This document shows, one piece after another, positions 26,028 to 64,000 of a stretch of 64,000 bases of DNA. The translations under genes were made by a program, and so were the position numbers. How positions within the stretch are numbered: the stretch's first letter is position 1; each line of letters starts with the position of its first letter. Source of the stretch: Treponema sp. (GTDB lineage Bacteria; Spirochaetota; Spirochaetia; Treponematales; Treponemataceae); assembly GCF_017430385.1 (NCBI RefSeq), contig NZ_JAFRNB010000128.1, forward strand, positions 7,690-71,689, written 5' to 3'. Below the pieces are notes generated by a model. It searched no databases and was not told the DNA's origin. It saw only the letters and a program-made list of their open reading frames with translations.

Positions 26028-28508
26028 ATGACTTTAAAAAAGATTTTTATATTAACTTTGATTTCCTCAATTTTGATTCCCGTTTTTTCAGCCGGAAAGA
26101 AAACATCGTCTTCTACAAAAAAAAATAAGGCTCCTGTTCCTGCGGCGGTAAATCCTACGACGACAAAATCCCCGGAGGCAAAGACCGCCGTTGACAAGCT
26201 AAAGAAAACTCCGTCATCAAAACAAAAAAAAGAGCCGGTGATTGTATATAATGAAGATTTTGTAAAGGGCGAGGAACTTTTTGTGCTCAATAAGCCAGAA
26301 GAAGCAATCGTCTATTTTGAAAAATCACTCCAGAGCGAAAATGTTGACCCAAAAGTCTATATCTATCTCGGAGTCTGCTATTATCAGATTGAGCAATATG
26401 ACAAATCTCTTGCGGTATGCGTTCAGGGACTTGCCAAGGAAGATACTGACCACAAAATCCTTGCGTACAATGCGGGTAACTCGTGCTATGCGATGGGAAA
26501 CTATATGCGTGCCGATGCGAGCTATGCGATAGCAATCCGTGAGGACGAGACATATTCTCCGGCGGTGTTGAACCGTGCCAATGCTCAGCTTAAGCTCGAC
26601 CATCTTTCTGATGCGCGTGATAATTACCGCAAATACCTTGATATGGAGCCAGAAACTCCCCAGCGTGAAAAAATCGAAATAATCCTGCGACTTCTTGATG
26701 AAGAAATTTTGCGCCGTGCGAACGAAAAGCCGGAACTTGTGAACGCAGAATTCAACATCGAGAATGAAAAAATGGAAGTTCCTGAGGAGCCGGAGATAGT
26801 CCTTGCTGATGATATTCCGCAGGAAAAGAAGGTTGATGAGAAAATTCCGAGCGAACTCGTACATTCTGTAGCTCCAGAATTGCCGCAGGTTGCAGTCGAG
26901 AAAAAGCCTTTGGAGCGCGTTGAATCTGAAAAAATCGCCGTTAAAAAAGAAACTCCAATCATTCCTGAACTTGTCGGACCGGACGGAGAACCACCGTACA
27001 TTCCTCCTGAGCAACTTAGGCTTGTTCCTGTTCTGCCTGTGATTGCTGATGCTGGCGATAATGCTGGCCGTCTTTCAAAAGATGCCGAAAAACTCAGGCT
27101 TGATGATGACATGAAGCGTTTTGAGGAAGAATACCGCCGTGAACGGGAAGAAGCTCAAAAGGCAGAGAATGCCCGAATTGCCGCCGAAGCCGAGGAAAGC
27201 CGAAGAAAAGCAGCCGAAGCTGAGCGTGAAGCCGAAGAAAAGCGAAGAAAAGCCAGAGAAGAAGAAGAAAAAATTGCGGCACAGAAACGCGCGCTTGAAG
27301 AAGAGCGCATGAATCTTGAAAAAGCAAAAATGAATGCTGAAATCGAGGCTCAGAAAAGAGCTTTGGAAGAGCAGCAGCGTAAAATGGAAGAATCGATGAA
27401 AGCTTTTGAGGAAAATCAGAAGCGTATCGCCGAGGAAAACCGCCGCAAAATGGAAGAGGACGCCCGCCTTGCCGAAGAAAAACGAAAACTTGAGGATGCG
27501 AGAAGGGCTTTTGAGGCAGAACAGCAAAGAGTAATGGAAGAAAACCGCCGTAAAATGGAAGAAGAGGCGCGGATAAAGGCTGAGGCCGAGGCAAAAGCTA
27601 AGGCGGAGGAAGAGGCGCGAAAGGCCATTGAAGCGCAGAAAGCCGCCGAAGAAGCCGCAAAACTCAAGGCTGCGGAAGAAGCAAAAAAGGCCGAAGAAGA
27701 AAAGAAAAGAGCAGAGGAAGAAGCCCGCCAGGCTGAGATTGCATCATGGCCGAAGCCTAGCGCATCTATTTCCGTCAAAGGCGGCTCGAATTTCACTCCT
27801 GACGGCGATGGTCAGAACGATACAGTTGTTTTCTCTCCTAGCATAGATTATCTTGAGGATCCTCCTGGCAGCTGGTCGCTCGATATTCTTGACCCGCAGG
27901 GAAATCCGTTCCGCACGATTAAAGGAAGCGGAAAACTCCCGAAAAACATTGAGTGGGACGGAATGAGCGACAAGGGCGAGGTCGTTCTTTCAAAAAATAC
28001 ATACACCGCGAAACTTACAGTTGTTCCATCTGCCAAAGATCAGGCTCGAATAGGAATGGCTTCCGTAGGTACTAGCGAAAAAGTTAAGACAGGCTTGCTT
28101 TTGCAGGTAATTGTTCCTGGCAAGGAGTGGAAAATGGTCGTAAATTCAATCAATTTCGTTCCCAATGGAGCACTTGGAGCCAATAAACTGACAAAAGAGC
28201 AAAGAGACTGGAACAAGGAGACACTTGACGAGATTGCCGAGGAAATAAAAGCTCACCCTGGCGCAAGCATAGTAATTATTGAAGGGTATGCGAACAATAT
28301 CAGCGGAACAGAAAAAGAGAACCGGGAGGAACTTATTCCGTTGAGCCAGCTTCGTGCAGATGCAATCGTAGATGAACTTGTAAAACGCGGGGTCAGCCGG
28401 GATTTGCTTCAGTCTACCGGTATGGGCGGTGCTAATCCTATGGCATCACAAAGTGACAAGGCAAACTGGTACAAGAATCGCCGTGTTGAATTCAGAATCA
28501 AGAAGTAG
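26028..28508 (+). CDS. Exported TPR / charged-helix / FlgD-Ig-like / OmpA-like domain protein
   Basis: Signal peptide; TPRs; ~210-aa E/K/R/A helix; FTPDGDGQND; OmpA C-terminal motifs IEGYAN, LSQLRADAIVDELVKRGV, NRRVEF. Confidence 0.85.
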   Translation: MTLKKIFILTLISSILIPVFSAGKKTSSSTKKNKAPVPAAVNPTTTKSPEAKTAVDKLKKTPSSKQKKEPVIVYNEDFVKGEELFVLNKPEEAIVYFEKSLQSENVDPKVYIYLGVCYYQIEQYDKSLAVCVQGLAKEDTDHKILAYNAGNSCYAMGNYMRADASYAIAIREDETYSPAVLNRANAQLKLDHLSDARDNYRKYLDMEPETPQREKIEIILRLLDEEILRRANEKPELVNAEFNIENEKMEVPEEPEIVLADDIPQEKKVDEKIPSELVHSVAPELPQVAVEKKPLERVESEKIAVKKETPIIPELVGPDGEPPYIPPEQLRLVPVLPVIADAGDNAGRLSKDAEKLRLDDDMKRFEEEYRREREEAQKAENARIAAEAEESRRKAAEAEREAEEKRRKAREEEEKIAAQKRALEEERMNLEKAKMNAEIEAQKRALEEQQRKMEESMKAFEENQKRIAEENRRKMEEDARLAEEKRKLEDARRAFEAEQQRVMEENRRKMEEEARIKAEAEAKAKAEEEARKAIEAQKAAEEAAKLKAAEEAKKAEEEKKRAEEEARQAEIASWPKPSASISVKGGSNFTPDGDGQNDTVVFSPSIDYLEDPPGSWSLDILDPQGNPFRTIKGSGKLPKNIEWDGMSDKGEVVLSKNTYTAKLTVVPSAKDQARIGMASVGTSEKVKTGLLLQVIVPGKEWKMVVNSINFVPNGALGANKLTKEQRDWNKETLDEIAEEIKAHPGASIVIIEGYANNISGTEKENREELIPLSQLRADAIVDELVKRGVSRDLLQSTGMGGANPMASQSDKANWYKNRRVEFRIKK

Positions 28509-28516
28509 GGCGGAAT

Positions 28517-30463
28517 ATGAAATCATATTTAAGACGGACTTTTATTGCAGTTTTTCTCTTGATTTTTAGTCATATAGCCCTCTTTTCGTATGACTTGACT
28601 TTCAGGTTTGAGCCTCTTGCACTTGCTCCGTTCATGTCTGCGGGAGAGACCAAATGGGATCCTGTGGGTGCCGGCGGAATGTTGAGCATGGGAATTGATT
28701 TGTTCGGATTGGTGAATGTCGGTACGATGGCAGGATATCTTTATGTTCCGAAGAACAATAATTCCGAGCTTCTGCCTGACGAGGCAAAATTCGTTAGCGT
28801 TATCCCTGTAGGGCTTCAGACCAGCCTGACTTTCTATCCTTTTGCGAGACTGGAGCTTGGCCTTGGCGGGGCTATGGGCTACGGAATCGCGCAGAACGGA
28901 AGCATGTCGCATTTTGCTCCGTGGTACAGGGGATTTGCCGAGGCGGGATTCAGGTTTAATCCGAAATGGACTTTGGGCTTAGGTGGCTCTTATTTTGCGT
29001 ATCAGAATACATCATGGTTCGGGCAGCCGGGCATAGCAGGCATTACGGCCGGAGTCTCGCTCAAACTTCATCTGGAAACAAAGAAAAAATCATTCGGAAG
29101 CGGAACTGTCGTTTGTACCGCTGAAATCCCGGACAGTCTTTTCCCGCTTTTCTATACAATGTATAAGGAAAATCCTTTTGGTACGATTCAGATAAAAAAC
29201 AACGAGTCTGCTGAAATCCGAAATGTGTCGGTAAGTTTCAAGGCAAAAGGCTATACGGCTTCCGAGCTGGAATGTGGTCATATTTCAAATATCAGGAAAG
29301 GAAAAACAAAGGAACTCCAGCTTGTGGCAGATTTCAGTAAGGAAATCTTGCGTTTTACAGAGGCCGGAAAAATCCCTGGCGAAATCATCGTCACTTATGA
29401 GCTTCTTGGTCAAAAAAAGGAATCAGTTTCTTCTATAATAATTCCTGTTTATAACCGAAACCAGATGCGCTGGACTGACCCGCAGGCAATTTCGGCATAT
29501 ATTTCTGCTTCTGCTCCTGAAGTCCTTGAATTCTCAAAGGTTCTGGTCGGACTCGCACGAAGCCATCTGCGTTCAGGCGTTAACCGTAATCTTCAGTTTG
29601 CGATGTATGTCTTTGAGGGAATGAGACTTGCCGGCATACGAAACATTGATGATTTTGAGACACCTTATTATTTATATCATACAGATGATTCTCTGGTAGA
29701 TCACATTCAGTATCCTTATCAGACAATGTTCTACAGGGCAGGTGACAAGGATGAGATGGCAATCCTTTTCATGGCACTTCTTGAATCTGTCGGTATCAAG
29801 GCCGCTTATATTCCTCTTGAAAATGATTTCCTCGTTCTTATCAACACCGGCATTGATGGCGATAAGGCGGACCGATTCTTTGACGGTGAGGACAGAATCC
29901 TTGAGTTTGAGAATCAAATTTGGGTTCCGATTTCGATGAAAATGATTCAGGAGGGATTTATAAACAGCTGGCACAATGGAGCCAGGGATTTGACGAAGCT
30001 TATTATGGACGATGCAGACCTGTCAATTGTCTTCCTTGAAGAAGCATGGCAGATTTATCCTTCAGCCGGATTTACGAGCAACGAGAATGTTTCCGTTTCT
30101 GCTGATGAAAAGCGTCTTGTCGCAGCCTGTGAAGTTGACCTTGCCCGATATGTTTCAACGGAATTTGGTCCGAAAATCAAGGAAGCACAGGACATTCTTA
30201 AAACTGAAGGTGCTACTGCAGAAAATTATAATCAGCTTGGAATCCTTTATGTCCGGGCAGGAATGTACACCGAGGCATCTTCTGTTTATCAGAAATCTGC
30301 CGCATTGGGAAATGTTGCCGCGATGAACAACCTCGGAAACATCGCGTCACTCCAGAAAAACTTCCTGGAAGCAAAAAAATGGTATGAGAAAGCACTGGCT
30401 ACCGATCCGAAGAATGCCAGCGCAAGGAAGAATCTTGAGCGTGTTTTGGGTGAACTTGAATAG
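28517..30463 (+). CDS. Predicted OM beta-barrel + inactive transglutaminase-like domain + TPR protein
   Basis: Signal peptide; ~170 aa of amphipathic Gly/aromatic strands; QYPYQTMFYRAGDKDE (no Cys); C-terminal TPRs; paralogous to the next gene. Confidence 0.75.
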   Translation: MKSYLRRTFIAVFLLIFSHIALFSYDLTFRFEPLALAPFMSAGETKWDPVGAGGMLSMGIDLFGLVNVGTMAGYLYVPKNNNSELLPDEAKFVSVIPVGLQTSLTFYPFARLELGLGGAMGYGIAQNGSMSHFAPWYRGFAEAGFRFNPKWTLGLGGSYFAYQNTSWFGQPGIAGITAGVSLKLHLETKKKSFGSGTVVCTAEIPDSLFPLFYTMYKENPFGTIQIKNNESAEIRNVSVSFKAKGYTASELECGHISNIRKGKTKELQLVADFSKEILRFTEAGKIPGEIIVTYELLGQKKESVSSIIIPVYNRNQMRWTDPQAISAYISASAPEVLEFSKVLVGLARSHLRSGVNRNLQFAMYVFEGMRLAGIRNIDDFETPYYLYHTDDSLVDHIQYPYQTMFYRAGDKDEMAILFMALLESVGIKAAYIPLENDFLVLINTGIDGDKADRFFDGEDRILEFENQIWVPISMKMIQEGFINSWHNGARDLTKLIMDDADLSIVFLEEAWQIYPSAGFTSNENVSVSADEKRLVAACEVDLARYVSTEFGPKIKEAQDILKTEGATAENYNQLGILYVRAGMYTEASSVYQKSAALGNVAAMNNLGNIASLQKNFLEAKKWYEKALATDPKNASARKNLERVLGELE

Positions 30464-33185
30464 AAAAAATCTGTTTTCATTTTCAAAAAAATATGCTGTT
30501 CTCTTGATTGCTTTCCTTTTGGGAAATTGCCTTGCCTTTGCTGACGGTGAGATTCTTTTTAATGTCCACGGATATTTCGGGTCTGTTTTCTCAAGCAATT
30601 ACGCTTCTTTTCCTGTAAAAACCGGCTACGGCGGCGGAACTAAAATCTCTTACAGAACGCCTTTTGCCCTTGAATTTTCTGCCGGCCTTGACTACCTTAT
30701 CCTTCCGCGTGAAACGAAGACCAGCGAAAGCCTTACCCCTGCAAGCTATCTGCGCACTGGAATCGGAGTTGGATTCAACATTCCGTTAGGCGAAAGATTT
30801 GCCCTTGTTCCGGGACTTAATGCGGGTATTTACAACCTCAATGTTTCAGGCGAGACAAAAAAGGCAATGTTCGTCGGCGGTTCAATTTCTTTCGTCTACA
30901 AAATTAACCAGCGTTTTGCAATAGAAATTCCTGCTGTCGCCGAGTTCAACCGCGGAATTTTTGCCGACATCGGATTGGCTCCCGGCCTCACTGTGAACCT
31001 CTCAAAAATGTTCTCCGATAATGCCCTTGTCTCAATGGAAGTAAAGGAAGTTAAGCCTGTCTTCCCGGTTCTTTATTCATGGTATGAGAAAAATTCTTTC
31101 GGCACGGTTTCTGTCACGAACCAAGAGGACACCAGCATAACCGATGTAAGCGTAAGTTTCTTCCAGAGCCAGTACATGGCACAGCCTAAAGAATGTGCAA
31201 GAATAAGCAGGATTGAGCAAGGAGAATCAAAAGATGTTGACCTGATCGCGTTCTTCAACGAGAGTATGCTTGAGCTTATCGAGAAGGTTGACACTCAGGG
31301 CTCAGTGACCGTTTCATATTCCGTGCTTGGTCAAAAGAAAGAAAAGACTTTCCCTGTCACGCTCGGAATTTACGGCCGAAACTCGATGTCTTGGGATGAT
31401 GACCGCCGTGCCGCCGTCTTTGTTTCTTCAAAAGACCCTGCCGCCATGCTTTTTGCGCGCCATGTCATGAGCTGCGTTCGTAACAATCTTCGTTCCGGGG
31501 TTCCTCAGAACATTCAGTACGCTATGGGAATTTTTGAGGCTCTGGATGAATTCGGCATCAACTATGTAATCGACCCTAATTCTTCTTATTCTGACAATGT
31601 TGGTTCTTCTTCAATCGACTTCCTTCAGTATCCTTATCAGACTTTGATGTATCGTGGTGGTGACTGTGATGACCTTTCGATTCTGACTTGCTCGCTTTTT
31701 GAGGCTGTCGGTATTCGCACGGCATTCATCACGATTCCGGGACACATTTTCATTGCCTTTGATTCTGGAATCAAGCAAAAGGATGCCGGAAAATACTTCC
31801 ATTCACTGAATGAATATATCGTTTCGGACGGAGAAGTCTGGGTTCCGCTTGAAATTACGCTTTCTGACGAAGGCTACACCAAGGCTTGGCGTGTCGGTGC
31901 AAGAGAATGGTATTCAGCCGCAAGGACGAACGAGGCGATGCTTTACAAGATGCACGAGTCCTGGCAAATTTACCGTCCTGTCAGCGTTCCGGGGGCTGCC
32001 GTTAAATTTCTTCTTCCTGAGAGAAATGATGTTCTTGCAAGATTTTCTGACAGCGTTGATGAATGGATTGTCCGCGAAATTTCTCCGCAAATCCGAGCTT
32101 ACAACGAAAGCCTTGCAAATGGTGAGGATGCCGGGGTTCGCAATGATTTTGGAATCCTTTATGTCCGCTATGCGCTTTTTGATGAGGCGGAAAGTCAGTT
32201 CAAGATTGCGCGCAAAATGAAAAATGATAACGCAGTCCTGAATACGGCCGGCATGTATTTTGCGAAGGAACAGTACGAGTATGCTTCCTTATTATACAAG
32301 CAGATTATAAAAAATGATGATGAAAACACTCTTGCTTATCTAGGGCTTGCCCGTTGTGCCTACGAACTTGGTGATTACAAGACTTGTGATGACGCTTATG
32401 CCGTAGTCCTTGAAAGGGACATGGATACGGCTGCAAAATATGCTTATCTTGGTTCTTTTGAGACTGTGCAGGGGCGTGCTTTCTCACTTTCGGAAAGGCT
32501 TGAGAATACAATCTGGGTCGGAAGTCAGGACATTAAGAATTCTCTGGAGCCGGACAAGGACATGGACTATTATGTTCGCCACGGAATCGGCCTGAACTCA
32601 CAGTTCATCATTCCTACGGACAATATGCCTGTGGTCGAGAAAAAATCCGAGCCAGAAAAACCTGTCATTGCAAAAGAGCCTGACTGGAATAAGGACAAGA
32701 CCTGGCAGAAAGTCATCGTCATTATTGAGGAAGAAGAGCCTAAGAGAAATACTGCCGAGGAAACTAAGCTCAAGAAAGAAATTGCCGCTGTCCATCAGAA
32801 ATATATGCAGAAAGATGAGCAGCCAGAAGAGAATGTCGAGGTTGCCGTCGCTCCTAAAAAAGAAGAGCCTGACAAAAAAGAGATTCCTGAGATTCCTTTT
32901 GTCACACAGACAAAGGACGAGCTTTTCTATAAGAACAAGGATCCGCTTTTCTATGAGAAGGAGCTTCGCCGTCGTTACTATTATGTTCAGATTGCAAGTT
33001 TCTCAAGCTATGAAAGGGCAGTGGAGCTTTGCAAAAAATATCCGAAATATCCGCTGCAAATTGTTAAGAGCGGAGAATATTTCCGTGTCGTGATCGGTGC
33101 GCTTACAATAGATGAATGTGGGGCTGTCCTTGAGAAATTCAAGGCATTTGGATTCAAGGATGCTTTCATAAGGAGGATTGAATAA
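30450..33185 (+). CDS. Predicted OM beta-barrel + transglutaminase-like cysteine protease + TPR + SPOR protein
   Basis: Start probably GTG 30450 or TTG 30456; signal peptide; barrel-like strands; QYPYQTLMYRGGDCDD...PGHIF...WVPLE; TPRs; C-terminal YYVQIASFSS...FRVVIG...DAFI (SPOR). Confidence 0.8.
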   Translation: MNLNRKNLFSFSKKYAVLLIAFLLGNCLAFADGEILFNVHGYFGSVFSSNYASFPVKTGYGGGTKISYRTPFALEFSAGLDYLILPRETKTSESLTPASYLRTGIGVGFNIPLGERFALVPGLNAGIYNLNVSGETKKAMFVGGSISFVYKINQRFAIEIPAVAEFNRGIFADIGLAPGLTVNLSKMFSDNALVSMEVKEVKPVFPVLYSWYEKNSFGTVSVTNQEDTSITDVSVSFFQSQYMAQPKECARISRIEQGESKDVDLIAFFNESMLELIEKVDTQGSVTVSYSVLGQKKEKTFPVTLGIYGRNSMSWDDDRRAAVFVSSKDPAAMLFARHVMSCVRNNLRSGVPQNIQYAMGIFEALDEFGINYVIDPNSSYSDNVGSSSIDFLQYPYQTLMYRGGDCDDLSILTCSLFEAVGIRTAFITIPGHIFIAFDSGIKQKDAGKYFHSLNEYIVSDGEVWVPLEITLSDEGYTKAWRVGAREWYSAARTNEAMLYKMHESWQIYRPVSVPGAAVKFLLPERNDVLARFSDSVDEWIVREISPQIRAYNESLANGEDAGVRNDFGILYVRYALFDEAESQFKIARKMKNDNAVLNTAGMYFAKEQYEYASLLYKQIIKNDDENTLAYLGLARCAYELGDYKTCDDAYAVVLERDMDTAAKYAYLGSFETVQGRAFSLSERLENTIWVGSQDIKNSLEPDKDMDYYVRHGIGLNSQFIIPTDNMPVVEKKSEPEKPVIAKEPDWNKDKTWQKVIVIIEEEEPKRNTAEETKLKKEIAAVHQKYMQKDEQPEENVEVAVAPKKEEPDKKEIPEIPFVTQTKDELFYKNKDPLFYEKELRRRYYYVQIASFSSYERAVELCKKYPKYPLQIVKSGEYFRVVIGALTIDECGAVLEKFKAFGFKDAFIRRIE

Positions 33186-43232: not shown

Positions 43233-43261
43233 TTGACAACTTGGTATTAGTGCGTTATGAT
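43233..43261 (+). promoter_or_regulatory. sigma70 promoter
   Basis: TTGACA (43233)-N17-TATGAT (43256); AGGAGG RBS at 43297. Confidence 0.8.
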
Positions 43262-43723: not shown

Positions 43724-43747
43724 TCATCTTTAACATGTTTTGTTGGG

Positions 43748-43778
43748 AATCCTGCATTATCTGTGCAGGATTTTTTTT
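43748..43778 (+). terminator. Intrinsic terminator
   Basis: AATCCTGCA...TGCAGGATT followed by a T run. Confidence 0.8.
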
Positions 43779-49024: not shown

Positions 49025-49071
49025 AACTCACAGTGTATCAGAAAAATCGGATAAGTTCCACAAAAATCATT

Positions 49072-49195
49072 AAGGGCGAAATCCACCTGCTTGCGCTGTT
49101 CCGCAGTTCGCTAACGCTCAGCCGCTTCCCTCACTCACTCCGTTCGTTCAGTCCAGTGGCCGCCTCCGGCGCTGCTCCATAGCTGGCGCGCCCTT
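49072..49195. repeat. GC-rich intergenic element bounded by AAGGGCG/CGCCCTT
   Basis: 7-bp terminal inverted repeat; internal GTTCGCTAACGCTCA and CACTCACTCCGTTCGTTCA motifs. Confidence 0.5.
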
Positions 49196-49358
49196 TCTTT
49201 TTATCCAAAACCGACTTTCTTTTTAACAATTCTGATTTTATTTAAATCGCGTTGCCAAAAATGAAAATTTTTTGGAAATAAATATATGTCAGAAGGAAAA
49301 CTTTCCTCAGAGCATGGATTTTCCCCTGACGGAAATTTATTTTTTACGAGGCGTATTT

Positions 49359-50177
49359 ATGGCAGCCAAAAGAAAGACTAAAAGCTGGGAAGAATTAACA
49401 TTCGCGGACAATTTTTTGTTCTGCAAAATTCTGGAAAGCGAGCCTGAGCTGTGCCGGGAACTCATAGAGTTGCTTCTTCACATCAAAATCGACCATCTTG
49501 AGCAGCCGCAGTCAGAGAAGACAGTGCAGGAATCGTTCGATGTGAAAAGCGTTAGATTCGACGTCTACACGAAGGACGACAGGCGAATTTTTGATCTGGA
49601 AATGCAGACCACCGACACGAAAAACCTTCCAAAGCGTGCAAGGTATTACCAGAGCGCAATCGACACGGACAATCTGGCGAAAGGCGAGAATTACACGAAA
49701 CTGAAAGACTCTTACATCATCTTCATCTGTCTTGACGACATCTTCGGAAAAGAACTTCCAGTCTATTCCTTCGAGAATTTATGCCGGGAGGACAAAAACC
49801 TAAAGCTAAACGACCGGACATACAAAGTCTTTTTCAATGCAAAAAACTGTGATAAACTTAAGACACAGGAAGAGAAAGACTTCTTCAAATTCCTCAAAGG
49901 GAGCAAAGCCGAAACCTCACTTTCCAAGAGAATTGAAGAAAAAGTCGAGTTCGCAAAGAAAAACTCTGATTGGAGGAAAAACTACATGACCTGGCAGCAG
50001 ACGATAGATGAAGAAAAAGAAATTTCGTTCGAGGAAGGAGCGCAGGCAAATGCCATTGAAAACGCCCGGAATCTTCTTCGTATGAATTTGTTAACAGAAG
50101 AACAGATTTCTCAGGCCGTATCCCTTCCGCTGGAGCAGGTGATTGCACTCAAAAATGAATTGAAAACGGAAAGTTGA
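49359..50177 (+). CDS. Rpn family recombination-promoting nuclease / putative transposase (PD-(D/E)XK)
   Basis: LTFADNFLFCKIL; KSVRFDVY...IFDLEMQ; PKRARYYQSAID; YIIFIC..DIF; C-terminal helical/HTH-like tail. ATG 49359 after GAGG. Confidence 0.9.
   Translation: MAAKRKTKSWEELTFADNFLFCKILESEPELCRELIELLLHIKIDHLEQPQSEKTVQESFDVKSVRFDVYTKDDRRIFDLEMQTTDTKNLPKRARYYQSAIDTDNLAKGENYTKLKDSYIIFICLDDIFGKELPVYSFENLCREDKNLKLNDRTYKVFFNAKNCDKLKTQEEKDFFKFLKGSKAETSLSKRIEEKVEFAKKNSDWRKNYMTWQQTIDEEKEISFEEGAQANAIENARNLLRMNLLTEEQISQAVSLPLEQVIALKNELKTES
49986..50177 (+). CDS. Putative in-frame internal product (RpnS-like intragenic antitoxin, 63 aa)
   Basis: GGAGG at 49972-49976, 9 nt before an in-frame ATG at 49986 that begins the C-terminal domain. 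Confidence 0.6.
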   Translation: MTWQQTIDEEKEISFEEGAQANAIENARNLLRMNLLTEEQISQAVSLPLEQVIALKNELKTES

Positions 50178-53386: not shown

Positions 53387-53396
53387 GCTCAATTCC

Positions 53397-56300: not shown

Positions 56301-56702
56301 TATCTCCTTTGAAACCTCACCACTGCTGTATGCAACTCCACTGACCTTGGCAGTAAGTGTGAATTTCCATGTTTCAGTATTTGATTCTGTCTGGAGTTCT
56401 ATCTGTTTTGCACTCATTTCTAGGAGTGTGTCAGCTTTTGAAAGGACTTGTGTTTCTCCGTTGCCACGCTTGCCTGTGAGAACCAAATTAGAGATTTCAA
56501 CTTTTGGAAGAAGTGTTCGTGAGCCTGAATCTGTATTTTCGACATTTACCCGTATGTACGCCCGCTCTGATTTTGACTCTTCTGCCGTTAAGACTGCCTT
56601 GAATTCTTCTTCCCTGTCAGCAATGTTGCTGCAGGAGATTATGAGAGGGGCAAAAGCTAATGCAGCTAATGTAAGAATTTTTCTTATTGTTATCATTTTC
56701 AT
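53397..56702 (-). CDS. Surface lipoprotein with InlB-B-type repeat, BspA-type LRRs and GLUG-like beta-helix
   Basis: Lipobox LIISC; TFSGWYT...LTLYAKW; F.DC..L.S(I/V).LP LRR_5 units; FSGTLDGDGHKI and GGI.G...NC.N.G repeats. Confidence 0.88.
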   Translation of the reverse strand: MKMITIRKILTLAALAFAPLIISCSNIADREEEFKAVLTAEESKSERAYIRVNVENTDSGSRTLLPKVEISNLVLTGKRGNGETQVLSKADTLLEMSAKQIELQTESNTETWKFTLTAKVSGVAYSSGEVSKEIKSGGENPLSFTLEPADGATTGTLDFSLTFTGTEGVDYEVIVNGLPLPDTQKSGDTIIWKESGLTPGTHALKIEFRAKNANNSSAPLSEVLNTYKNVFRIEKGITTKAEVTNFNLNQVYSITYDGYEPTTNADVPVADALDPTDSVMTLKFSRKAGAGTDGYITLPKLSNSSMTFSGWYTSADFAEASKVPESGTAPNTVQKIKVRENLKDLTLYAKWMFSSNGTVYTLADYNFSFALKNQDDSDATVIYPGQEAVFVINPTITKKGTAIPLTITENGKTLIEEKEVTWTASLLNDAIIVADGIAVTANSSTGKISLTVPAQTYRDNYILKITSTYLGLSHDAYFSINISKNAINAAFYINSLTEAGEYTVEVEGAVGPGTEEGLAKVASAIKSRSSNVFINLDAINTSRLSDIATYNNGAYFKDCTQLKSIILPDWMQYVIPNLFKDCTNLTSVTLSKNTQWICTNAFNGCVKLASITIPAGITGSGEHYGIQAGAFTDCNSGFTITYQGTKEQWGKVRRPDNSTSATKWHDGTLEDGDTDGSVACTNGKCGFDYEPIYPVSSLTEAPTSGTYTLSTLDELKQIRTWVGTAPRSTLENVTFKLTDDIDTQGEQITIGYFQYSSFGSNTEYAFSGTLDGDGHKITNTIPETSSNYKYSALFYYVKGGTIKNLTVAGTSNRGSIIGILKEGTVENCVSETNITISSSDSINSTGEVYVGGIVSSINRPSNGSSVIKNCVNKGNITIDRGGSIRAGGIAGDCWDSSIIIDRCINKGNISVSKPIYGLGGIVGQLCEYTAISNCKNVGTITTTTSANSVGGIAGYLNNGNDASATNKMVLNCCNNGDVNSGSESSGLFGNLSKKPHLKNNCNSGTSYYGFSSKIADSFSSIEWITNNYCMDGSYTSGNIVNYSGSVTIGSQNVTTSSDSQTTKNSLNNWASTNSSDSLQFASWKLNAVGKPELDLGELDNK

Positions 56703-56710
56703 TGCGGCTC

Positions 56711-58864
56711 CTAATTTTTTGTAATCTGAGCGTGGTAAGAGTATGTCTTACTGTCTTTTACAGCTTCCAGATAAATGTCGTAAGTGCCTTTTGTCCAGCT
56801 TGTTGTGTCAATGACAAGCGTATCTGTTATTCCAGTCTGTGCTGTGCCATCAACCGTCCAATTATAAGTTGAGCAGCCAGTTGTGGTTAATTTGAATGTG
56901 ACTTCGTTTCCGCTGCTTGTCTGCGTTACTTCAATATCTTCTTCCTGCTGTATGACGGTGATTGTAATGTTTCGCTTTACCCTTTCGATGAGGGTTCCGT
57001 CGCTCAGAACAAGCCATACGCTGTCAGTGTTATTCTGTTTTACCTTAATCTTTTCGTAGTTTGCCGCAAGATATTCGCTGTCCGCTACGACCTTTGCTCC
57101 GTTTGCATAAGTTTCCGGCGTGATTGTCGCTGCCGTTTCCTGCTTGAGGTTGCCTGTAATCTTGAGTGTTCCGCCACTTACAAGGTTTACTTCCGTAATC
57201 TGGGCGTTAGATTCGATTCCAAGACTTGTGCCTTGTACGGTTGCCGTTGTGATTACAGCATCTTCTGAGACTGTGATGTTGTTTGCAGTCTTTGCCGTGA
57301 GGTTTGTAACCTTGACAGCCTTGATTGTTACAGGAATTCCACTTGTAAGGCTGAATGTGCCGAGCGTGTCCGAAGATGGAGAGTTTGCGCTTGTGATTAT
57401 GAGTCCTGAAGCTGCTATTGAATCTGTGTTTTCCTCTCCTGTGACATTTCCCTGAATCATGAGAGTGTATTCTACGCTGTCATCGTTGCGCTTGTTGATG
57501 TCGGCGATTGCCTTATGGATTGTCTTGTAAGGCAGTGCGTCCGTTCCGTCGGCTTCCGTGTCCTCATCGCTTCCGTTTTCGCCGATGAAGAGACATGAGT
57601 CGAGTACGCGGATATAGCTGATTGCCTTTGCTGATTTTTCATAGTTTGTCTTTGTTGCATAAGTTTCCAGATACCATGATCCGACTTCAAGTTCCAGTGT
57701 CAGGCTGCCTGAGAAAGTTCCGGTCTTGACGAGTTTTGCGACTTTCGGGGTTCCATTGTAGAGCGTGTAATGAACTTCAAGTCCGTCCGAAGAAACCGCT
57801 CCTCCGAGGTTGTCCGCAGTCGGGGCTGTGACAGTCACCGTCGTGTATTCTTTTCCGCTCAAAAGAGGAAGTGACTTTGGCTTGTATTCATTTGTTACGC
57901 TGTTGTAGTCCGTGTCATATTTTGATTCGATTGATTTCCCTGACACATTCGTGATGGTAGGGGAGTTGAGTTTTGTGATTTTCGTGCTTGCAAGTGATGT
58001 CGAGGAAAGTCCCGCCTTGTCTGCAAGTATAATTGAATATTCCTTGTCACCTTCGACGAAAGGCTCGCCCGTGGTGTAGTAAACCGAGCGGTCATTGTAC
58101 GTGAATGTTTTTCCACCGATTGCGATGAGTGTTTTCTGGGTTGTTGAGAAAGCAGAATCTGAGAAACTGAAATTTCCGTCCGCATCCACGGAAACAGGAT
58201 AAGATTGCCCGTTTACGCTGATTGAAGTCAAATCTTTGTGCCGAAGAGCAAGCTCCGCCTGGGAAGGCATGTCGAATGCAACTACAAATGTCGTGTTTGA
58301 TTCGTTCAGAACAGTCGGATTGTTAAGCTCAGGCGGCTTTGTGTTGCTGAAAAGACTGAAACTGTAGTCTCCGAAATTTCGTCCGCTCCGTGGCTCAGTC
58401 AGATGGACTGTCGGACTGATTTCCTTTCCTTCGTCAGCATCGACCAAAAATGTGACAGGCATAGTAAGCTTAAGGGTGTCGTTTGTGTCCTGCTCGATTG
58501 TAACGGCTGACAAATCGATTTCTGAGTCAAGTGCCGGAAAAGTTACGGTTGTGTCGAGCTTGTACCGCTGCGGATTTCGCATGAAAAGGGTAACTGTACC
58601 GTCTTCCATTGAGCTTATGCAGAGGTGGAGACTTCCGTCATTGTATGTCGGAACGAGAATCTGGTGCTGCATGACTGCCGCGCTTTCCGTGTATTCCTTG
58701 AAGAATTCCTTTGCCGGGTCGTTGAAAGTAGGCTCGAGAACATTTTCAAAATCACATGCAGGAAGAATAAAAGGAAGAAAAAGCGTTAATTTCAGTGCGA
58801 GAAAATTTAATTTGACAGATTTGTCAGATCTTTCTGCATTTTTTCTGAATTTCTCTAAAAACAT
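56711..58864 (-). CDS. Surface lipoprotein (Ig-like plus beta-helix-cap domains)
   Basis: AGGAGG RBS; lipobox ILPAC; DGTDALPYKTIHKAI motif; ATITP.TY motif shared with 50387..53386; C-terminal Ig-like domain. Confidence 0.8.
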   Translation of the reverse strand: MFLEKFRKNAERSDKSVKLNFLALKLTLFLPFILPACDFENVLEPTFNDPAKEFFKEYTESAAVMQHQILVPTYNDGSLHLCISSMEDGTVTLFMRNPQRYKLDTTVTFPALDSEIDLSAVTIEQDTNDTLKLTMPVTFLVDADEGKEISPTVHLTEPRSGRNFGDYSFSLFSNTKPPELNNPTVLNESNTTFVVAFDMPSQAELALRHKDLTSISVNGQSYPVSVDADGNFSFSDSAFSTTQKTLIAIGGKTFTYNDRSVYYTTGEPFVEGDKEYSIILADKAGLSSTSLASTKITKLNSPTITNVSGKSIESKYDTDYNSVTNEYKPKSLPLLSGKEYTTVTVTAPTADNLGGAVSSDGLEVHYTLYNGTPKVAKLVKTGTFSGSLTLELEVGSWYLETYATKTNYEKSAKAISYIRVLDSCLFIGENGSDEDTEADGTDALPYKTIHKAIADINKRNDDSVEYTLMIQGNVTGEENTDSIAASGLIITSANSPSSDTLGTFSLTSGIPVTIKAVKVTNLTAKTANNITVSEDAVITTATVQGTSLGIESNAQITEVNLVSGGTLKITGNLKQETAATITPETYANGAKVVADSEYLAANYEKIKVKQNNTDSVWLVLSDGTLIERVKRNITITVIQQEEDIEVTQTSSGNEVTFKLTTTGCSTYNWTVDGTAQTGITDTLVIDTTSWTKGTYDIYLEAVKDSKTYSYHAQITKN

Positions 58865-58873
58865 TTTAACCTC

Positions 58874-60175
58874 CTAGAACTGCCAGCCCACGCCAAGTGA
58901 AGGCTGAACCATGCCAAGAATCATGTCTTTGTTCATTGTGAAGATATAATCTGCCGCAATCTCCGTGTAAAGCCGCTTGTTTATGTAAAACTGAACGCTC
59001 AGGCCTGCATCTGCCGAAGGTGAAAGAGTGTTGAGCGCAGGTGACTGCATGTTGTGCGGGAAGTGGAAGATGATGTTGTTGAAGTAGGTGACTCCTGCTC
59101 CGGCGTGAATTTCTGCCACAACGCGTCTTCGGAACATTGGCAGCTGGTAGATGAAAAGGAAATGCCCTGTGCCCAAATTTCCGTCAATCGTGTAAGTGTC
59201 TTCCTTATACTCAAGCCGTGAATAGCTTGCCCTGAGACCTATTCCGAGGTAGCCCCAGTTGCGCTTGAACGGCATGAAGCTGATTTTTGCCTGACCGCTT
59301 AAAGGATAGATTTTTGATCCGAGATATGTCGGAAGCGTTTCATCGTGAAGGACATAAGGGCATGTGTAGCCGGCCTGAATGTCCAAATCCATCCATTTCT
59401 TGAATTTGACCGTGAATTCTGAGTCTGAGCTTGCCTCTGAGTGGAGGCCTGAAGCGTCCTGTGCGAAGAAATCGTATCTTCCGACCTCAAGTTTTTTCAT
59501 GTCGAAGCGGAATTTGATTTTTCGGTTCCTGAGTTCGTCGATGCTTAAAACTTCTTCCGGGTAAATCGTGCGCGAGCCCTTGAGGAAGTATTTTGTGTGG
59601 ACGATAGCCTTGTCTTCCGGGTCCGGCATGAAAAGGTTACGGCCTTCGACTTCAATGATTCCGTCGTTGTCCAGATCGTCGAGGTAAATCGTGCTCCTCA
59701 TGTAAAGAGGGTAGCTTACGCTGCGGATTTCCGGCTTGTATGCCTGGCGGACCGTGAATTCGTCGTGGCTTGTCAGGCTTTGCTCCAGTTTGCCTAAGAT
59801 ATTGTAAACCTTGATTTCCGAGCGGTACTGGCCGACCGGAAGAACCGGATCAATGTAGATGATGCAGGATTTTGTTTCCTCTTCGTTGGTTTCATGGAAG
59901 AAATATGGAAGATAATGTTCCGCTCCCTCATCGAACCGTTCGATTATGATTTCATATTTGAGGACATCGCCTGCACTTACCCATGAAAAAGGCTGCTTTA
60001 CTTCGTTTGCCTGTGCCGTATCGCTCTGGGAATTTCCAATGTCTCCGATTCCAAAATCCTGCTCAAGACCAATTGTAAAATTCTGTTTTTTCTTTCCCCA
60101 CGCCCATGAGAATGGGATGGAAATTGTAAAAATAAGGACAATCACAGAAAATTTGAGCATAATCCTACTGAGCAT
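58874..60175 (-). CDS. Exported protein with C-terminal predicted outer-membrane beta-barrel
   Basis: Signal peptide; two beta-sandwich-like segments; last ~170 aa are amphipathic strands ending SLGVGWQF (terminal Phe, BAM-type signal). Confidence 0.75.
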   Translation of the reverse strand: MLSRIMLKFSVIVLIFTISIPFSWAWGKKKQNFTIGLEQDFGIGDIGNSQSDTAQANEVKQPFSWVSAGDVLKYEIIIERFDEGAEHYLPYFFHETNEEETKSCIIYIDPVLPVGQYRSEIKVYNILGKLEQSLTSHDEFTVRQAYKPEIRSVSYPLYMRSTIYLDDLDNDGIIEVEGRNLFMPDPEDKAIVHTKYFLKGSRTIYPEEVLSIDELRNRKIKFRFDMKKLEVGRYDFFAQDASGLHSEASSDSEFTVKFKKWMDLDIQAGYTCPYVLHDETLPTYLGSKIYPLSGQAKISFMPFKRNWGYLGIGLRASYSRLEYKEDTYTIDGNLGTGHFLFIYQLPMFRRRVVAEIHAGAGVTYFNNIIFHFPHNMQSPALNTLSPSADAGLSVQFYINKRLYTEIAADYIFTMNKDMILGMVQPSLGVGWQF

Positions 60176-62927
60176 AGAAATCTCCATTCCGCTTTCGAGA
60201 TGCACCGGTTGAATTCAATGTGTAGTCAATCGTGAACCTGTTTTCGGCAGGAATTCCGTCAATCAGGATGCGTTTTTTGTCATCTGTCATTCTTACTGCC
60301 CATACTTTCCATGAGAAGTTTCCTTTGTCCAGAATAGTTAAGTCTCTGAGGACGAATTTAGTGTTTTCGTTGCCGTCAAGAACTTCCCTTACAAGCCGTT
60401 TGTTTTTCTCAGTGTAAAGTTCAAAAATGTAGCTTTGTGCGCGGGAAACCTTGTTCCATGAGAAGTCAATCTCGTGGTTGTTTCTGAGATATTCGGCGTT
60501 GAAAACAGTCCCACCCTCAGTTTTTGCATTTTGCGGCATGTCGAACGGCGGAATAGGCTCAATCGTAAAGTAAGATGGTTTTACGGCTGAAATATCAAGT
60601 TCGTCCATCGTGTAGGCGTTTACAGTCCATTCATAAGTTCCGCTTGAAAGCTGTGGAAGACGGCATGAATAGCCTGTCTGCCTGAGCACGATTGGCTCGG
60701 CGTTTTTGTCACCGGTCTTCGTGATGACGATGTTTGCCTTGGAGAATTTTTCGGCAGACTGCCACTTGAAGTACGGCGGATTTTCGATTGCATCCCAGCC
60801 TGAGATTGATGCGCTGTTTGAAGGTGAAACAAGCACTACCGGGCGGATTTTTCGCAATACGAAGTATGCGCTTGCAAGTTTACTGCTTCGGCGGGAAGCT
60901 GATTCCGTCTCGTAAGAATATGACTGCAATTCCCAGCGGTAAGAGCCTTCCTCAAAATCGTCCATTGCGACTGAGAAATTCGTTGCCGTTATGAAATTTT
61001 CGTCCAGAATCGGAGTATCGCTCTGTCCCTTGAAGAGTTTGAGCCTGTAATAGTCGGCATTTTCGGCTTCATCCCATGTAAATTCATATTCTTCTGCCGG
61101 TCGCACGACTGCCTTGTAAGATTCGGAAGGCTTTATCTGGTGCGGCTGAGGAAGTTCAGGCACGATATGAATCTGTTTGCCAGGAGTTGAATTCTTGAAA
61201 TTTCCTTCCTGTGTGCTGATTCGCCACCAGTAAGTTCCTTCTTCAAGCTGTGCTCCGCTGAATGAAGTGTTGTTTGTCTCCGAGTCAAATATGATGTTGC
61301 TGAAGTTGCTGTCCTTCGCAATCTGAATGTGCTGCGTGAAAGTGAGGTTTGTCTTCCATGTAAAGCGTGTGTCGCCTGTGAGCGGCTGCCAGATTGAGTA
61401 GCCGTCTGGCGGGAAGATTGTCCTCTGCTCGATTTTGCCGTTGATTGCATAGAAAGAGCGGATTTCAGATGTTGCGGATTCATTTCCTTCGCTGTCAATC
61501 TGTGTGACTGCCCAGAAATATTCGCCGTCCTTGAGGCTTGAGACATCGGAACCCTTGAATGTGATGAAGTTTTCTGCTGTTTCGCGGGTGAAAGTAGGGA
61601 AGTTGAGGCTCTTCATCGCTGAGACAGTGACTTTGTAAGAACTTGCTTCGTTTTCCATGCCCCACGAGAGCGTGAGAGAATTCTTTGATTTGTTTACGAA
61701 TTCGCCGTTGCCAGGTGTGTAAAGTACCGGCGGTTTAAGCTCGCCCTGCCTGTTTACGGTGAATGTTCCGATTTCTGAAGGATTTGCAAGTCCTGTCCTG
61801 TTAATCATGTAATATGGAGTGACCTGCCACCAGTAAGTTCCTTCCGGAAGGGTAGAGATAATCATTGATGAAGAAGAACTTCGCTGCTCGATGACAGGAT
61901 TTTTCATGTCAGGGCTTTTTGAGATTACGAAGTTGTATGCGCTTGCTGTATCAGACTCAGTCCAGATGAAGCGGATTGATGGAGTCTTCTTTCGGTAATG
62001 ATATGAGTAGTCCGTGGCCGGTGCGAGAAGATTTGGCTTCAATGCCTGAATGACCTGCAGTTTGCCCGAACTTTTTGCCTTTTCGTCTTTTTCGGAAGAA
62101 AGAAGCCAGTAATATGTTCCTTTTTTGAGATTGACCGTGGTTTTGTTAAGCCCGCTGACATCAAATTCTTCGGTTACGGAACGGAAATCCCTGTCTGAGG
62201 CAATTTTGAGCGTGAGATTTTCATTGTCCTTGCCGTTCCATTCAAAATTGACCGGATATGATTCATCATCAAAATAGAGAATTTTCTGATCGGGCAACGG
62301 GCTTGTGACTGAGAGCAAGGCTTCGGTTTCGCCGCTTTCGTTTACGAGAAATTTTTTGCCCTCTGTGAAAGTTGAGCCGTCGGCGAGCGAGGCCGTACCT
62401 TTCTGAACAGTGAGGTTGATGTTTTCGCTTTCCTCGGTTTTCTGTGCGGAAATTTTTGTTCCGGCCTTAACATTGACCTTTACATTTGATGCCGTGAGAG
62501 TGAGTCCTGCTCCATTTTCGCTAGAATCAACTGTCGCGATACCTTTTTCAAGTTCTGCACCGAGAGAGCCGTCCGTGTGCCGGAAGACCTGAGCCATTGT
62601 GTTTTCTGCAAGGTCAAGCACTGTTCCGTCATCGAACCAGACTGTTGCTTCTGAAAGGTTAGCCGTGTGAATCGTGTCGCCGTTGTATACGGGGGAGTGC
62701 TGACGGAGTCTGTCCCATACAACTCGGTCGAGGAATTTTCGCTGTGCTGTCTTATATTTGAATGTAATCGTCGCGATCGGAGCTTCGTTGAATTTCTCAA
62801 GCGCACGGAAAAAGCTCTGGTAAAAGAGCAGGAAGTTTATGCCTGCGCACAAGAGACAAACAAAAATCGAAATCCAGAACGGAACGGCTAAATCATTTCT
62901 TAACCTGAATTTTGTTCTCTTCTTCAT
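60165..62927 (-). CDS. Membrane-anchored FecR-domain protein with ~7 Ig/FN3-like repeats
   Basis: N-terminal TM; W..L...SPVYNGDTIHTANLSEATVWFDDGTVLDLAENT (FecR); repeats ending GTYYW, GTYWW, GEYFW, GTYWW, GSYRW, GTYEW, GNFSW. Confidence 0.85.
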   Translation of the reverse strand: MKKRTKFRLRNDLAVPFWISIFVCLLCAGINFLLFYQSFFRALEKFNEAPIATITFKYKTAQRKFLDRVVWDRLRQHSPVYNGDTIHTANLSEATVWFDDGTVLDLAENTMAQVFRHTDGSLGAELEKGIATVDSSENGAGLTLTASNVKVNVKAGTKISAQKTEESENINLTVQKGTASLADGSTFTEGKKFLVNESGETEALLSVTSPLPDQKILYFDDESYPVNFEWNGKDNENLTLKIASDRDFRSVTEEFDVSGLNKTTVNLKKGTYYWLLSSEKDEKAKSSGKLQVIQALKPNLLAPATDYSYHYRKKTPSIRFIWTESDTASAYNFVISKSPDMKNPVIEQRSSSSSMIISTLPEGTYWWQVTPYYMINRTGLANPSEIGTFTVNRQGELKPPVLYTPGNGEFVNKSKNSLTLSWGMENEASSYKVTVSAMKSLNFPTFTRETAENFITFKGSDVSSLKDGEYFWAVTQIDSEGNESATSEIRSFYAINGKIEQRTIFPPDGYSIWQPLTGDTRFTWKTNLTFTQHIQIAKDSNFSNIIFDSETNNTSFSGAQLEEGTYWWRISTQEGNFKNSTPGKQIHIVPELPQPHQIKPSESYKAVVRPAEEYEFTWDEAENADYYRLKLFKGQSDTPILDENFITATNFSVAMDDFEEGSYRWELQSYSYETESASRRSSKLASAYFVLRKIRPVVLVSPSNSASISGWDAIENPPYFKWQSAEKFSKANIVITKTGDKNAEPIVLRQTGYSCRLPQLSSGTYEWTVNAYTMDELDISAVKPSYFTIEPIPPFDMPQNAKTEGGTVFNAEYLRNNHEIDFSWNKVSRAQSYIFELYTEKNKRLVREVLDGNENTKFVLRDLTILDKGNFSWKVWAVRMTDDKKRILIDGIPAENRFTIDYTLNSTGASRKRNGDFYAQ

Positions 62928-64000
62928 TCAAGTTCACCGATTCAAATTCTGGGATTGGGATTCCAAGCAAGTTCCTTACTTCGTTCAAAGTTTTTGGGCC
63001 TGTAGGGCCTACGCAACGCGCACAGCTAGCGTCAAGTTTAAACTCTTTGTCCGATGTCTTGAAAAATGCTTCTATGTCGAAACGCGGCATGTTGACTACG
63101 CCGTAGAAATGCTGCGCTCCTTTGCCTTTTACTTCAAATTCAACAGGAATCATCTCAACAACGATTTCGTTAGCTTCATTCTCCTTAGGAAGCTTGAAGT
63201 TGTTTTCCTCGCACTTGATGTAATCCTTTTTGAGAAGGTTGTAAGTGTCCTGCGTGATAAGAATGTCAGTGCCGCAAGGCTTGTTTGAGCTTTCGGTTCG
63301 GCTCGCGAAGTTTACGCTGTCACCGATAGCCGTGTATTCCATCTTGTCTTCGCTGCCCATGATACCGCAGGTTGCTCGTCCTGTGTTGATACCGCAGCCG
63401 ATTCGGATGTGCGGCTTGTATTTTGCCTTTGCCTCGTGCTCGTGTGCCTTTGTGAATGCCTCCGCATCCTTGTTGTACTGCATGAGGGCGTAACGCATGG
63501 CGATTGTGCCGCGGATTGCGCTGACTGCATCCTGTTTTACATGGAGTGTGTGAAGCTCTTCCTTCTGTTTTTTGCTTGGGTCAGAGTCCGGGAGAAGCTC
63601 GAAGCTCAAATCCTCGTCGCGAAGGATGCCCCAGACCGCCATGATTGCATCACCTTCAAATTTGTCGATTGTGCCGCCTGAAATTGTTACGCAGTTTACC
63701 ATGCGGCTCATGTAGTCGTTCAAGAAGCCGATGATTTCGCGCGGACTTTCTTCACCGAAGCGGTTTTTGAATCCGTCTGAGATCGCTGTGAATCCTCGGA
63801 TGTCCGAGAAGAAGATGCTTACATCCTTAAGGTGCGGCTCGAAGTCGATTTCCTTTCGGGCGATTGCCTTTGCGACTCCACGGTTTGTGAAGCGGGCGAA
63901 TGTGTTCAAGAATTCCTGCTCGTCCTGGGTTGATTTGTTCAATACGCCGATTTCGTCACGCCTTTTTGTGTTGAGGGCTGCGATGATTGCCGTGTTGAAG
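62893..64000 (-). CDS. HAMP-containing class III adenylate cyclase (3' part; start lies beyond the window)
   Basis: Frame stays open to the window edge (FNTAIIAALNTKRRDEIGVLN, HAMP signature); FSDIRGFT, DKFEGDA, EYTAIGDSVNFASRTES. Confidence 0.92.
   Translation of the reverse strand, partial: FNTAIIAALNTKRRDEIGVLNKSTQDEQEFLNTFARFTNRGVAKAIARKEIDFEPHLKDVSIFFSDIRGFTAISDGFKNRFGEESPREIIGFLNDYMSRMVNCVTISGGTIDKFEGDAIMAVWGILRDEDLSFELLPDSDPSKKQKEELHTLHVKQDAVSAIRGTIAMRYALMQYNKDAEAFTKAHEHEAKAKYKPHIRIGCGINTGRATCGIMGSEDKMEYTAIGDSVNFASRTESSNKPCGTDILITQDTYNLLKKDYIKCEENNFKLPKENEANEIVVEMIPVEFEVKGKGAQHFYGVVNMPRFDIEAFFKTSDKEFKLDASCARCVGPTGPKTLNEVRNLLGIPIPEFESVNLNEEENKIQVKK

Follow-up and report, generated by a model that had tools for sequence, protein, structure and literature searches.

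A conserved cyclase–FecR–barrel operon of spirochaetes and its neighbour: candidate relays from the cell envelope to cyclic AMP in Treponema

FecR domains are encoded beside outer-membrane proteins in the FecA–FecR–FecI system, and together with an outer-membrane barrel and a membrane-bound class III adenylate cyclase, with no extracytoplasmic function (ECF) sigma factor, in NsrA/CyaK (and CyaD1/D2)–Clr. The gene directly before cyaK on Sinorhizobium meliloti pSymB, which we take to be nsrA from its position and size, encodes a FecR-TPR-barrel protein of 1190 amino acids (aa). NsrA is described with its barrel at 600-1200, and S. meliloti signalling needs both nsrA and cyaK (PMC7529298). In Campylobacterota, a cluster encoding a CHASE2 cyclase, a phosphodiesterase, a FecR protein and a TPR protein has been proposed to form one pathway (PMC9239204). 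Because of these two precedents, FecR–barrel–cyclase relays are an already known kind. We analysed 64,000 nucleotides of the genome of a rumen-type Treponema sp. (the window), in which an original prediction had seen two clusters built from the same four classes of parts and forming a signalling route from the cell surface to cyclic AMP (cAMP), with more novelty than these precedents leave. We report that the right-hand trio of the window, a dCache/HAMP cyclase, a FecR protein with a stalk of FN3 repeats and an FN3-Ig-barrel protein, is a conserved spirochaete operon, and that the left-hand cluster is an unrelated module.

We examined gene order in 121 Treponemataceae genomes at least 85% complete, of which 90 contain the FecR-FN3 protein, 85 the cyclase (E ≤ 1e-45) and 81 the barrel family. 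Loci were counted from listed coordinates, with one-gene pieces merged and eight unlisted FecR matches left out; kin genomes are not independent and the linkage counts are descriptions, not tests. The FecR-FN3 gene lies directly downstream of the cyclase at 106 of 108 loci, both misses being contig fragments. Seen from the other side, the cyclase is directly upstream at 106 of 116 FecR loci, and two of the ten misses hold a sub-threshold cyclase at this place; the cyclase is the most constant neighbour of the stalk. The barrel gene comes directly after FecR-FN3 in 96 of 105 barrel loci (three of the nine exceptions sit just upstream of the cyclase), which amounts to 96 of the 116 FecR loci. 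Across the phylum, the FecR-region profile matched 93 of 221 genomes, with 35/35 in the Leptospira family and 0/34 and 0/4 in two others. At 20 hand-picked loci from other spirochaete families, the cyclase is directly upstream in all 20 and a gene starting with FN3 directly downstream in 18. Overall, the linkage of cyclase, FecR and barrel on which the original prediction hinged is real and highly conserved.

The cyclase gene is cut by the window end. Its full open reading frame (ORF; C120:70582-72816) encodes 744 aa with two transmembrane (TM) helices and, as predicted, a HAMP domain, which was found in 16/16 right-type cyclases. The catalytic Asp, Lys, Asp, Thr, Asn, Arg and Lys are invariant across 16 right-type cyclases; in class III cyclases, the two Asp bind metal, Lys and Asp/Thr serve the substrate, and Asn and Arg the transition state. 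The second protein matches Pfam FecR (E 2.6e-6) and has a single TM helix at 12-30; its repeats, first taken for Ig, are of the FN3 type. Only about 11 residues precede the helix, leaving almost no cytoplasmic domain, and we found no cytoplasmic anti-sigma domain in the stalk and no adjacent ECF sigma gene; it is therefore not an anti-sigma factor of the usual kind. Against PDB, the right FecR profile matched only 4m0h and 5ix9 (E 0.48 and 0.94), and in the ESM Atlas the stalk finds FecR clusters, some from Bdellovibrionota. The third protein is without any Pfam or NCBIfam match. Its model, built from a 78-row alignment, consists of FN3, Ig and an eight-strand barrel with a predicted local distance difference test (pLDDT) score of 93, and has OmpA, Ail, OmpX and NspA as Foldseek top matches; the FN3 and Ig domains are predicted to lie in the periplasm. 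The barrel models of the window, including the left-hand one described below, show the antiparallel amphipathic strands, signal peptide and terminal aromatic residue of eight-strand barrels, so that the barrel calls hold up under structure prediction. The three genes overlap, by 35 nt between cyclase stop and stalk start and by 11 nt between the FecR and barrel genes. RNA-library contigs from two studies contain short pieces of all three genes, none bridging two of them, and are not evidence of transcription.

The right FecR profile matches the S. meliloti FecR-TPR-barrel protein (E 2e-11). There, these parts are fused and go with a CHASE2 cyclase, whereas both Treponema modules have split parts and eight-strand barrels; on the right, the cyclase is of the dCache/HAMP type and the FN3 stalk is anchored in the inner membrane, and on the left there are a half-FecR protein and transglutaminase-like domains. 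As in FecA–FecR–FecI, the right-hand FecR domain is anchored in the inner membrane, faces the periplasm and is encoded beside an outer-membrane protein, but the module lacks a TonB-dependent receptor, an ECF sigma factor and an anti-sigma domain, adds the FN3 stalk and has a cyclase as output gene. The absence of the first two from the clusters had been noted in the original prediction and extends to the contigs bearing the modules: the ECF-type sigma70_r4_2 matches of the source genome all lie elsewhere, and its one match to the TonB-dependent receptor family (PF00593) is unlinked. What the Campylobacterota cluster shares is a CHASE2 cyclase encoded together with a TPR protein and an envelope protein that has a FecR domain; it differs in its phosphodiesterase, absent from Treponema, and the right module has no CHASE2. 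The accessible text of that paper describes no barrel-transglutaminase pair, giant lipoprotein or half-FecR (PMC9239204). New in Treponema are thus the split parts, the anchored FN3 stalk, the dCache/HAMP cyclase, the eight-strand barrels, the transglutaminase pair, the half-FecR and the tie to Tp0483, and FecR domains wired to cyclases instead of sigma factors make a second phylum-wide architecture. In the literature we covered, mostly open-access main texts, we found no description of FecR, cyclase and barrel together in spirochetes (further sources are PMC13001267, PMC10463352, PMC11371664, PMC5348505 and PMC13181057).

Judged by sequence, the right trio is orthologous to TP0485-TP0484-TP0483 of Treponema pallidum, a link that the original prediction had overlooked. 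In the 1.14-Mb genome G018, the trio consists of the adenylate cyclase TP0485 (O83498), TP_0484 of the FecR family and TP0483. This genome has exactly one PF00211 match, making TP0485 the only class III cyclase found, together with five cNMP-binding matches and no CHASE2 match; PF00593 matched neither in G018 nor in G013. TP0484 matches Pfam FecR at E 1e-12 and has fewer repeats than the window stalk. A family hidden Markov model (HMM) built without TP0483 finds this protein nearly full length (model positions 53-399, E 2.9e-26), and its barrel part alone scores 26.4 bits versus at most 8.3 for 500 shuffles. The family link depends on the profile because a single-sequence search with TP0483 returned its own cluster only. 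Note that TP0483 was a row of the folded alignment and not the query, its barrel assignment being by HMM homology only.

Tp0483 is described as a fibronectin-binding protein whose peptide 316-333 blocks fibronectin binding (review PMC10118025). Aligned to the model, this peptide falls on the loop between strands 5 and 6 plus strand 6. Nine of the 11 members of the TP0483 cluster show differences at 352-357, which lies between strands 7 and 8; two also vary at 318, 319 and 325. From the barrel topology, the variable and blocking loops would face outward. The gene tp0483 is reported to be under positive selection, tp0484 not (PMC8789261, Table 4), and to be a recombinant locus (PMC6685089). The T. 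pallidum OMPeome papers list four eight-strand barrels and 0483 appears nowhere in their main text (PMC8407342, PMC12482175). Homology and loop mapping together lead us to predict that Tp0483 is an eight-strand barrel, which bears on the old dispute over whether it is an outer-membrane protein and is relevant to vaccine antigen lists; it also indicates which parts of the protein would be turned outward.

The same orthologous three-gene order is found in Leptospira, LIC11435/6/7. The third gene there belongs to the LIC11435 family and has no barrel; TP0483 matches the LIC11435 model over its FN3-Ig part (E 6e-9). LIC11437 is described as an adenylate/guanylate cyclase (PMC3798601), and LIC11436 would, from its numbering, be the Leptospira stalk. 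The literature found treats members of both trios singly, as adhesins or antigens: TP0483/4/5 are co-mentioned in one table only, and LIC11435-7 receive single mentions. Within the same literature we found no description of what drives TP0485 or cAMP in T. pallidum, for which the trio is now a concrete candidate input, as it is in spirochaetes generally.

The ends of the stalk and barrel proteins suggest how the two could be joined. The modelled first domain of the barrel protein contains FN3 strands B to G and lacks strand A, and in many orthologues the strand-B Trp lies only a few residues past the signal peptide. The stalks, for their part, close with a short tail past the last FN3. We scored the last 18 residues of the stalks against a strand-A profile from 125 internal FN3 repeats at 36 loci, leaving out five loci cut short or without a separate third gene. 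The tails of 18 Treponemataceae loci scored 2.04 versus -2.47 for shuffled tails, and those of 18 other loci 6.09 versus -1.33, with 0/1000 shuffles reaching the observed value in either set; the ends of other ORFs scored -3.87 on average. A Tyr stands third from the end in 24 of the 36 tails. In a genus without the barrel (g11), the last FN3 repeats and the tail are missing from 7/7 stalks, one lineage counting as one event. Because the tails resemble the strand lacking in the barrel head, and the barrel-less stalks lack the tail, these data suggest a split FN3 domain that would lock stalk to barrel.

Since the linkage is very strong, the barrels pass structure prediction and the catalytic residues of the cyclase are kept, a route from the envelope to cAMP is the best reading of these genes, and this part of the original prediction stands. 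We hold, with about even confidence, that the right trio relays signals from the outer membrane to cAMP, and that the left cluster is a separate module likely doing the same job with other parts. In such a relay, the stalk C-terminal tail would supply the first strand missing in the barrel FN3, so that both proteins would form a single rod spanning the periplasm. The FecR domain, which is close to the membrane and lacks a sigma-binding part, would act on the periplasmic dCache domain of the cyclase. Binding or pull at the outer loops of the barrel would then change cyclase output through HAMP, and the cAMP may be read by CRP-type proteins.

A number of observations weigh against this reading. 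Stalk length ranges from 349 to 1914 aa across loci, a five-fold variation that suits a loose tether as well as a transducer, and the S. meliloti FecR protein SMc02177 is reported as a target of cAMP-Clr that is not needed for signal perception (PMC5498481). With the dCache_1 match in 8/16 of the right-type cyclases, these two points would favour a cyclase that senses a small molecule through its own dCache domain, stalk and barrel being co-transcribed tethers or cAMP-controlled outputs and not the input. We consider this unlikely: the strict order and overlap throughout the phylum exceed what co-regulation usually keeps, and a FecR-type domain goes with a class III cyclase in three independent spirochaete modules as well as in NsrA/CyaK. 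The barrel itself is not constant. Genus g11 has cyclase and stalk in 7/7 genomes and a barrel match in 0/7, making the barrel dispensable there, and in four of the seven stalks (L155-L158) an FGE-sulfatase-like domain takes the place of the last FN3 repeats at the end. In the Leptospira family, the third protein keeps the FN3 head and has a non-barrel end, of LIC11435/DUF5683 type or helical, and one locus lacks a third gene and finishes with a fused propeller-like domain. Such replacements are what one would see if the working unit were the cyclase and the FecR stalk, sensing a periplasmic or envelope-stress cue, with the barrel as a swappable or losable outer anchor. The variation of Tp0483 in predicted outer loops, one of which carries the blocking peptide, speaks for a role of the barrel in sensing and makes this alternative improbable in our judgement, although immune pressure on any exposed anchor would look alike. 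Further points against the relay are the Gly-Thr self-cleavage site of FecR, degenerate in many stalk orthologues, the tail of the window's own stalk, which matches the motif poorly, and two Leptospira loci in which the tail motif is missing though the third gene is present. One study, as summarized in a review, found no outer-membrane location of Tp0483 and no rabbit protection (PMC10118025). LIC11436 is reviewed as binding fibronectin and raising adhesion, a misfit with a purely periplasmic protein (PMC11350617). On the left side, the likeness to the Lap system discussed below rests on sub-threshold matches.

Taken together with the report that the T. pallidum CRP homologue regulates tpr surface genes (review PMC10118025), the outer-membrane-to-cAMP reading can be extended into a broader one, which we offer as possible and rather doubtful. 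Tp0483 would be an overlooked fifth eight-strand outer-membrane barrel of T. pallidum and the surface receptor of a phylum-wide relay, locked to TP0484 by the split FN3; contact of its loops with host matrix would set TP0485 activity and hence the tpr genes controlled by CRP (TP0262), and FecR-to-cyclase signalling would have been rebuilt three times in spirochaetes with different outer parts. The operon makes two T. pallidum questions testable, the control of the cyclase and Tp0483 as an outer-membrane barrel.

The left and right clusters are two unrelated modules, contrary to the view of one set of parts in different order: they differ in the sensor domains of the cyclases, in the forms of FecR and in the periplasmic domains that their barrel proteins carry, and their proximity in the window is not a conserved feature. 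No right-type gene was found within 10 kb at any of 51 half-FecR loci, and in T. ruminis RU1 and one metagenome-assembled genome xseA, xseB and mutL follow one another without interruption; on these grounds we rejected the one-system reading. Between the two clusters of the window lie mutL, xseB and an Rpn-like gene. The right cassette of ~24 kb splits xseA from xseB (46674-50177 in the window and C120:72993-74192), and the Rpn-like gene marks one of its ends. In genome G115 the two modules adjoin each other, in another order.

In the left module, the CHASE2 class III cyclase foreseen by the original prediction was confirmed by Pfam and has the class III catalytic motifs. Two barrel-fused proteins had also been seen there. 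The model of the first contains an eight-strand barrel, Ig, a transglutaminase-like domain and TPR (pLDDT 88.5), its barrel matching NspA with Z 17.4 and a root-mean-square deviation of 2.2 over 149 residues; the transglutaminase-like domains of the pair, one dead and one intact, had been missed. The second protein keeps GDCDD and GHI..FD, that is, the Cys-His-Asp triad, of which the first has lost Cys and His, and Transglut_core is matched by 13 of 22 family members (E ≤ 0.1). This division recurs: among ten paired loci, the first copy lacks Cys/His and the second is intact in 9/9 pairs with both motifs read, and five single-copy loci keep Cys and His. A giant lipoprotein follows the active transglutaminase at 9/9 pair loci with room; the one in the window belongs to no Pfam or NCBIfam family. 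The gene at the start of the cluster, taken earlier for another barrel protein, encodes a TPR-coiled coil-OmpA protein, and genes of its type are absent upstream in 8/8 orthologous loci with room.

The FecR-like protein of the left cluster gives no Pfam FecR match and corresponds to the N-terminal half of a FecR domain only. In alignment it covers the first half of full FecR proteins, ending ~10 residues past TAS(S/T)RAS, the equivalent of the TASVRGT site in the full proteins; an alignment that includes full FecRs gives a profile match to the right FecR region at 88% and E 2.8e-6. The half-FecR profile found no match in PDB, the ESM Atlas returned spirochaete clusters, and the nearest named relatives come from rumen Treponema (T. 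ruminis RU1, 74%). Full-length orthologues occur in 12 of the 121 genomes, with E below 1e-17 in 11 of them and 5e-10 in the twelfth. All 12 have the CHASE2 cyclase beside the half-FecR, one with a gene between, and all 12 fall among the 14 genomes with the barrel-transglutaminase family. We also examined 51 half-FecR loci of the genome collection. Of the 49 with enough room, 45 have a match to the cyclase at most 3.5 kb away; of the 33 with room on the upstream side, 22 have an ORF of 900 aa or more directly upstream. The module is carried by T. ruminis and T. bryantii, which offer harmless, cultivable models. In this module, the CHASE2 cyclase would have the half-FecR, which is freely secreted, as its partner. 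The transglutaminase-like enzyme, anchored by its barrel, may together with the dead twin act on the half-FecR or on the giant lipoprotein, in the way that LapG processes LapA.

The Lap system comprises the LapA adhesin with its retention module, the transglutaminase-like protease LapG, and LapD, with cyclic di-GMP as messenger. The left module resembles it in three parts: a transglutaminase-like enzyme with Cys-His-Asp, a neighbouring giant protein with repeats, and a domain like the retention module that has a small-residue motif after it. It differs in that the retention-like domain is a separate small protein, the giant protein is a lipoprotein, the enzyme is fused to a barrel and has a dead twin, and the messenger would be cAMP. 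The LapA retention module (NF033682) matches the window protein with 18.4 bits (E 0.002), below the 50-bit cut-off, as do 16 of 18 aligned half-FecR proteins, at best with E 3.5e-6. The enzyme core matches 4fgo, which we take to be Legionella LapG, weakly (E 0.24); the fold matches listed were taken up by barrel and TPR and do not include LapG. We treat the Lap parallel as a lead, not as membership.

As a side observation, the sub-threshold matches and the weak 5ix9 match suggest homology between the N-terminal halves of FecR and the LapA retention module; our literature search found nothing joining the two.

Lipoproteins were given a core role in the original prediction, as ligand sensors or cargo of the barrel. 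Lipoboxes are indeed present, found by script in the giant protein and in two of the three right-hand ones and by eye in the third. On the right, lipoproteins follow the barrel at 10/20 hand-picked Treponemataceae loci, at 1/20 loci of other families and not in T. pallidum; because of this distribution they are passengers or optional inputs, and the core role is not supported. A third explanation would have the barrels display or export large lipoproteins that are the real sensors or adhesins, the left module being a Lap-like release system whose protease is controlled from the cyclase side. The Treponemataceae count, the constant place of the giant lipoprotein after the active transglutaminase and the retention-module matches all lean that way. 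We consider it very unlikely given the near absence of lipoproteins outside the family and the lack of LapD, TolC or type I secretion system genes in the clusters. To our knowledge, eight-strand barrels are also too narrow to have a lumen for protein export.

The features of the window, annotated from the ORF listing and Pfam, are collected in Table 1.

Table 1. Features of the two modules and their surroundings, in window coordinates
Feature	Position	Strand	Remark
3' part of dCache/HAMP class III adenylate cyclase	62893..64000	-	TP0485 orthologue, by sequence
Inner-membrane-anchored FecR + ~7 FN3-type repeats + conserved C-terminal tail	60165..62927	-	TP0484 orthologue, by sequence
Signal peptide + FN3 (strand A missing in model) + Ig + eight-strand barrel	58874..60175	-	TP0483 homologue
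Variable lipoprotein 1, optional passenger	56711..58864	-	Lipobox seen by eye only
Variable lipoprotein 2, BspA-type leucine-rich repeats, optional passenger	53397..56702	-	Lipobox by script
Variable lipoprotein 3, PMP-like repeats, optional passenger	50387..53446	-	Lipobox by script
PD-(D/E)XK (Rpn-like) gene, left junction of cassette between xseA and xseB	49272..50177	+	
Eight-strand barrel-Ig-transglutaminase-like-TPR protein; dead copy of the pair, with Cys and His replaced	28517..30463	+	
Paralogue with intact GDCDD...GHI...D motif, C-terminal SPOR domain	30384..33185	+	True start probably near 30450
Giant 3301-aa lipoprotein (Cys37), repeated D-x-x-GN motifs, C-terminal TM helix	33321..43226	+	
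Predicted sigma-70-like promoter of half-FecR gene, 11/12 matches	43233..43261	+	
Secreted 137-aa half-FecR / LapA-retention-module-like protein, ends TAS(S/T)RAS...W-x-E	43310..43723	+	ATG 43310
Terminator-like hairpin after half-FecR gene	43745..43775	+	
CHASE2 + 3 TM + class III adenylate cyclase, catalytic motifs intact	43821..46580	+	
TPR-coiled coil-OmpA protein, neighbour, not conserved module part	26028..28508	+	

Two apparent fusions, of cyclase and FecR (L034) and of FecR and barrel (L047), were rejected as evidence: they look like single-base errors that join the genes at their overlap, one of them still has a signal peptide inside, and the genes are separate in a close relative. 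Among variants of the right-type operon, the source genome has a second copy with lipoproteins after it (G000:C22:6709-15029), and L112 is a minimal version, in which a barrel protein and a 349-aa FecR protein with one FN3 accompany two cyclases that lie in tandem and have short periplasmic parts. Between HAMP and the catalytic domain, one heptad (seven residues) is missing from the window cyclase (L031:1583-3817), as it is from three relatives of rumen type; these four proteins also have three insertions inside the catalytic domain.

Across the phylum, a FecR-like gene lies near 8/20 fetched transglutaminase-family loci (L143-L149, L152), directly adjacent in six. A third type of module in the source genome (G000:C32:16280-21840) has a CHASE2 cyclase divergent from genes for a small protein, a barrel-like protein and a secreted FecR of 230-390 aa; the cyclase is adjacent in 5/8 relatives' loci fetched. 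The source genome has 11 cyclase matches in all, and a third class III cyclase of the window, at 604-3654, is of the beta-propeller type (Reg_prop, Y_Y_Y). A partner-switching trio (HATPase_c_2, STAS, GAF-SpoIIE) lies at 20199-22802, and secretin, ATPase and GspF/G-like genes are found outside the window, just past xseA, at C120:74326-80271.

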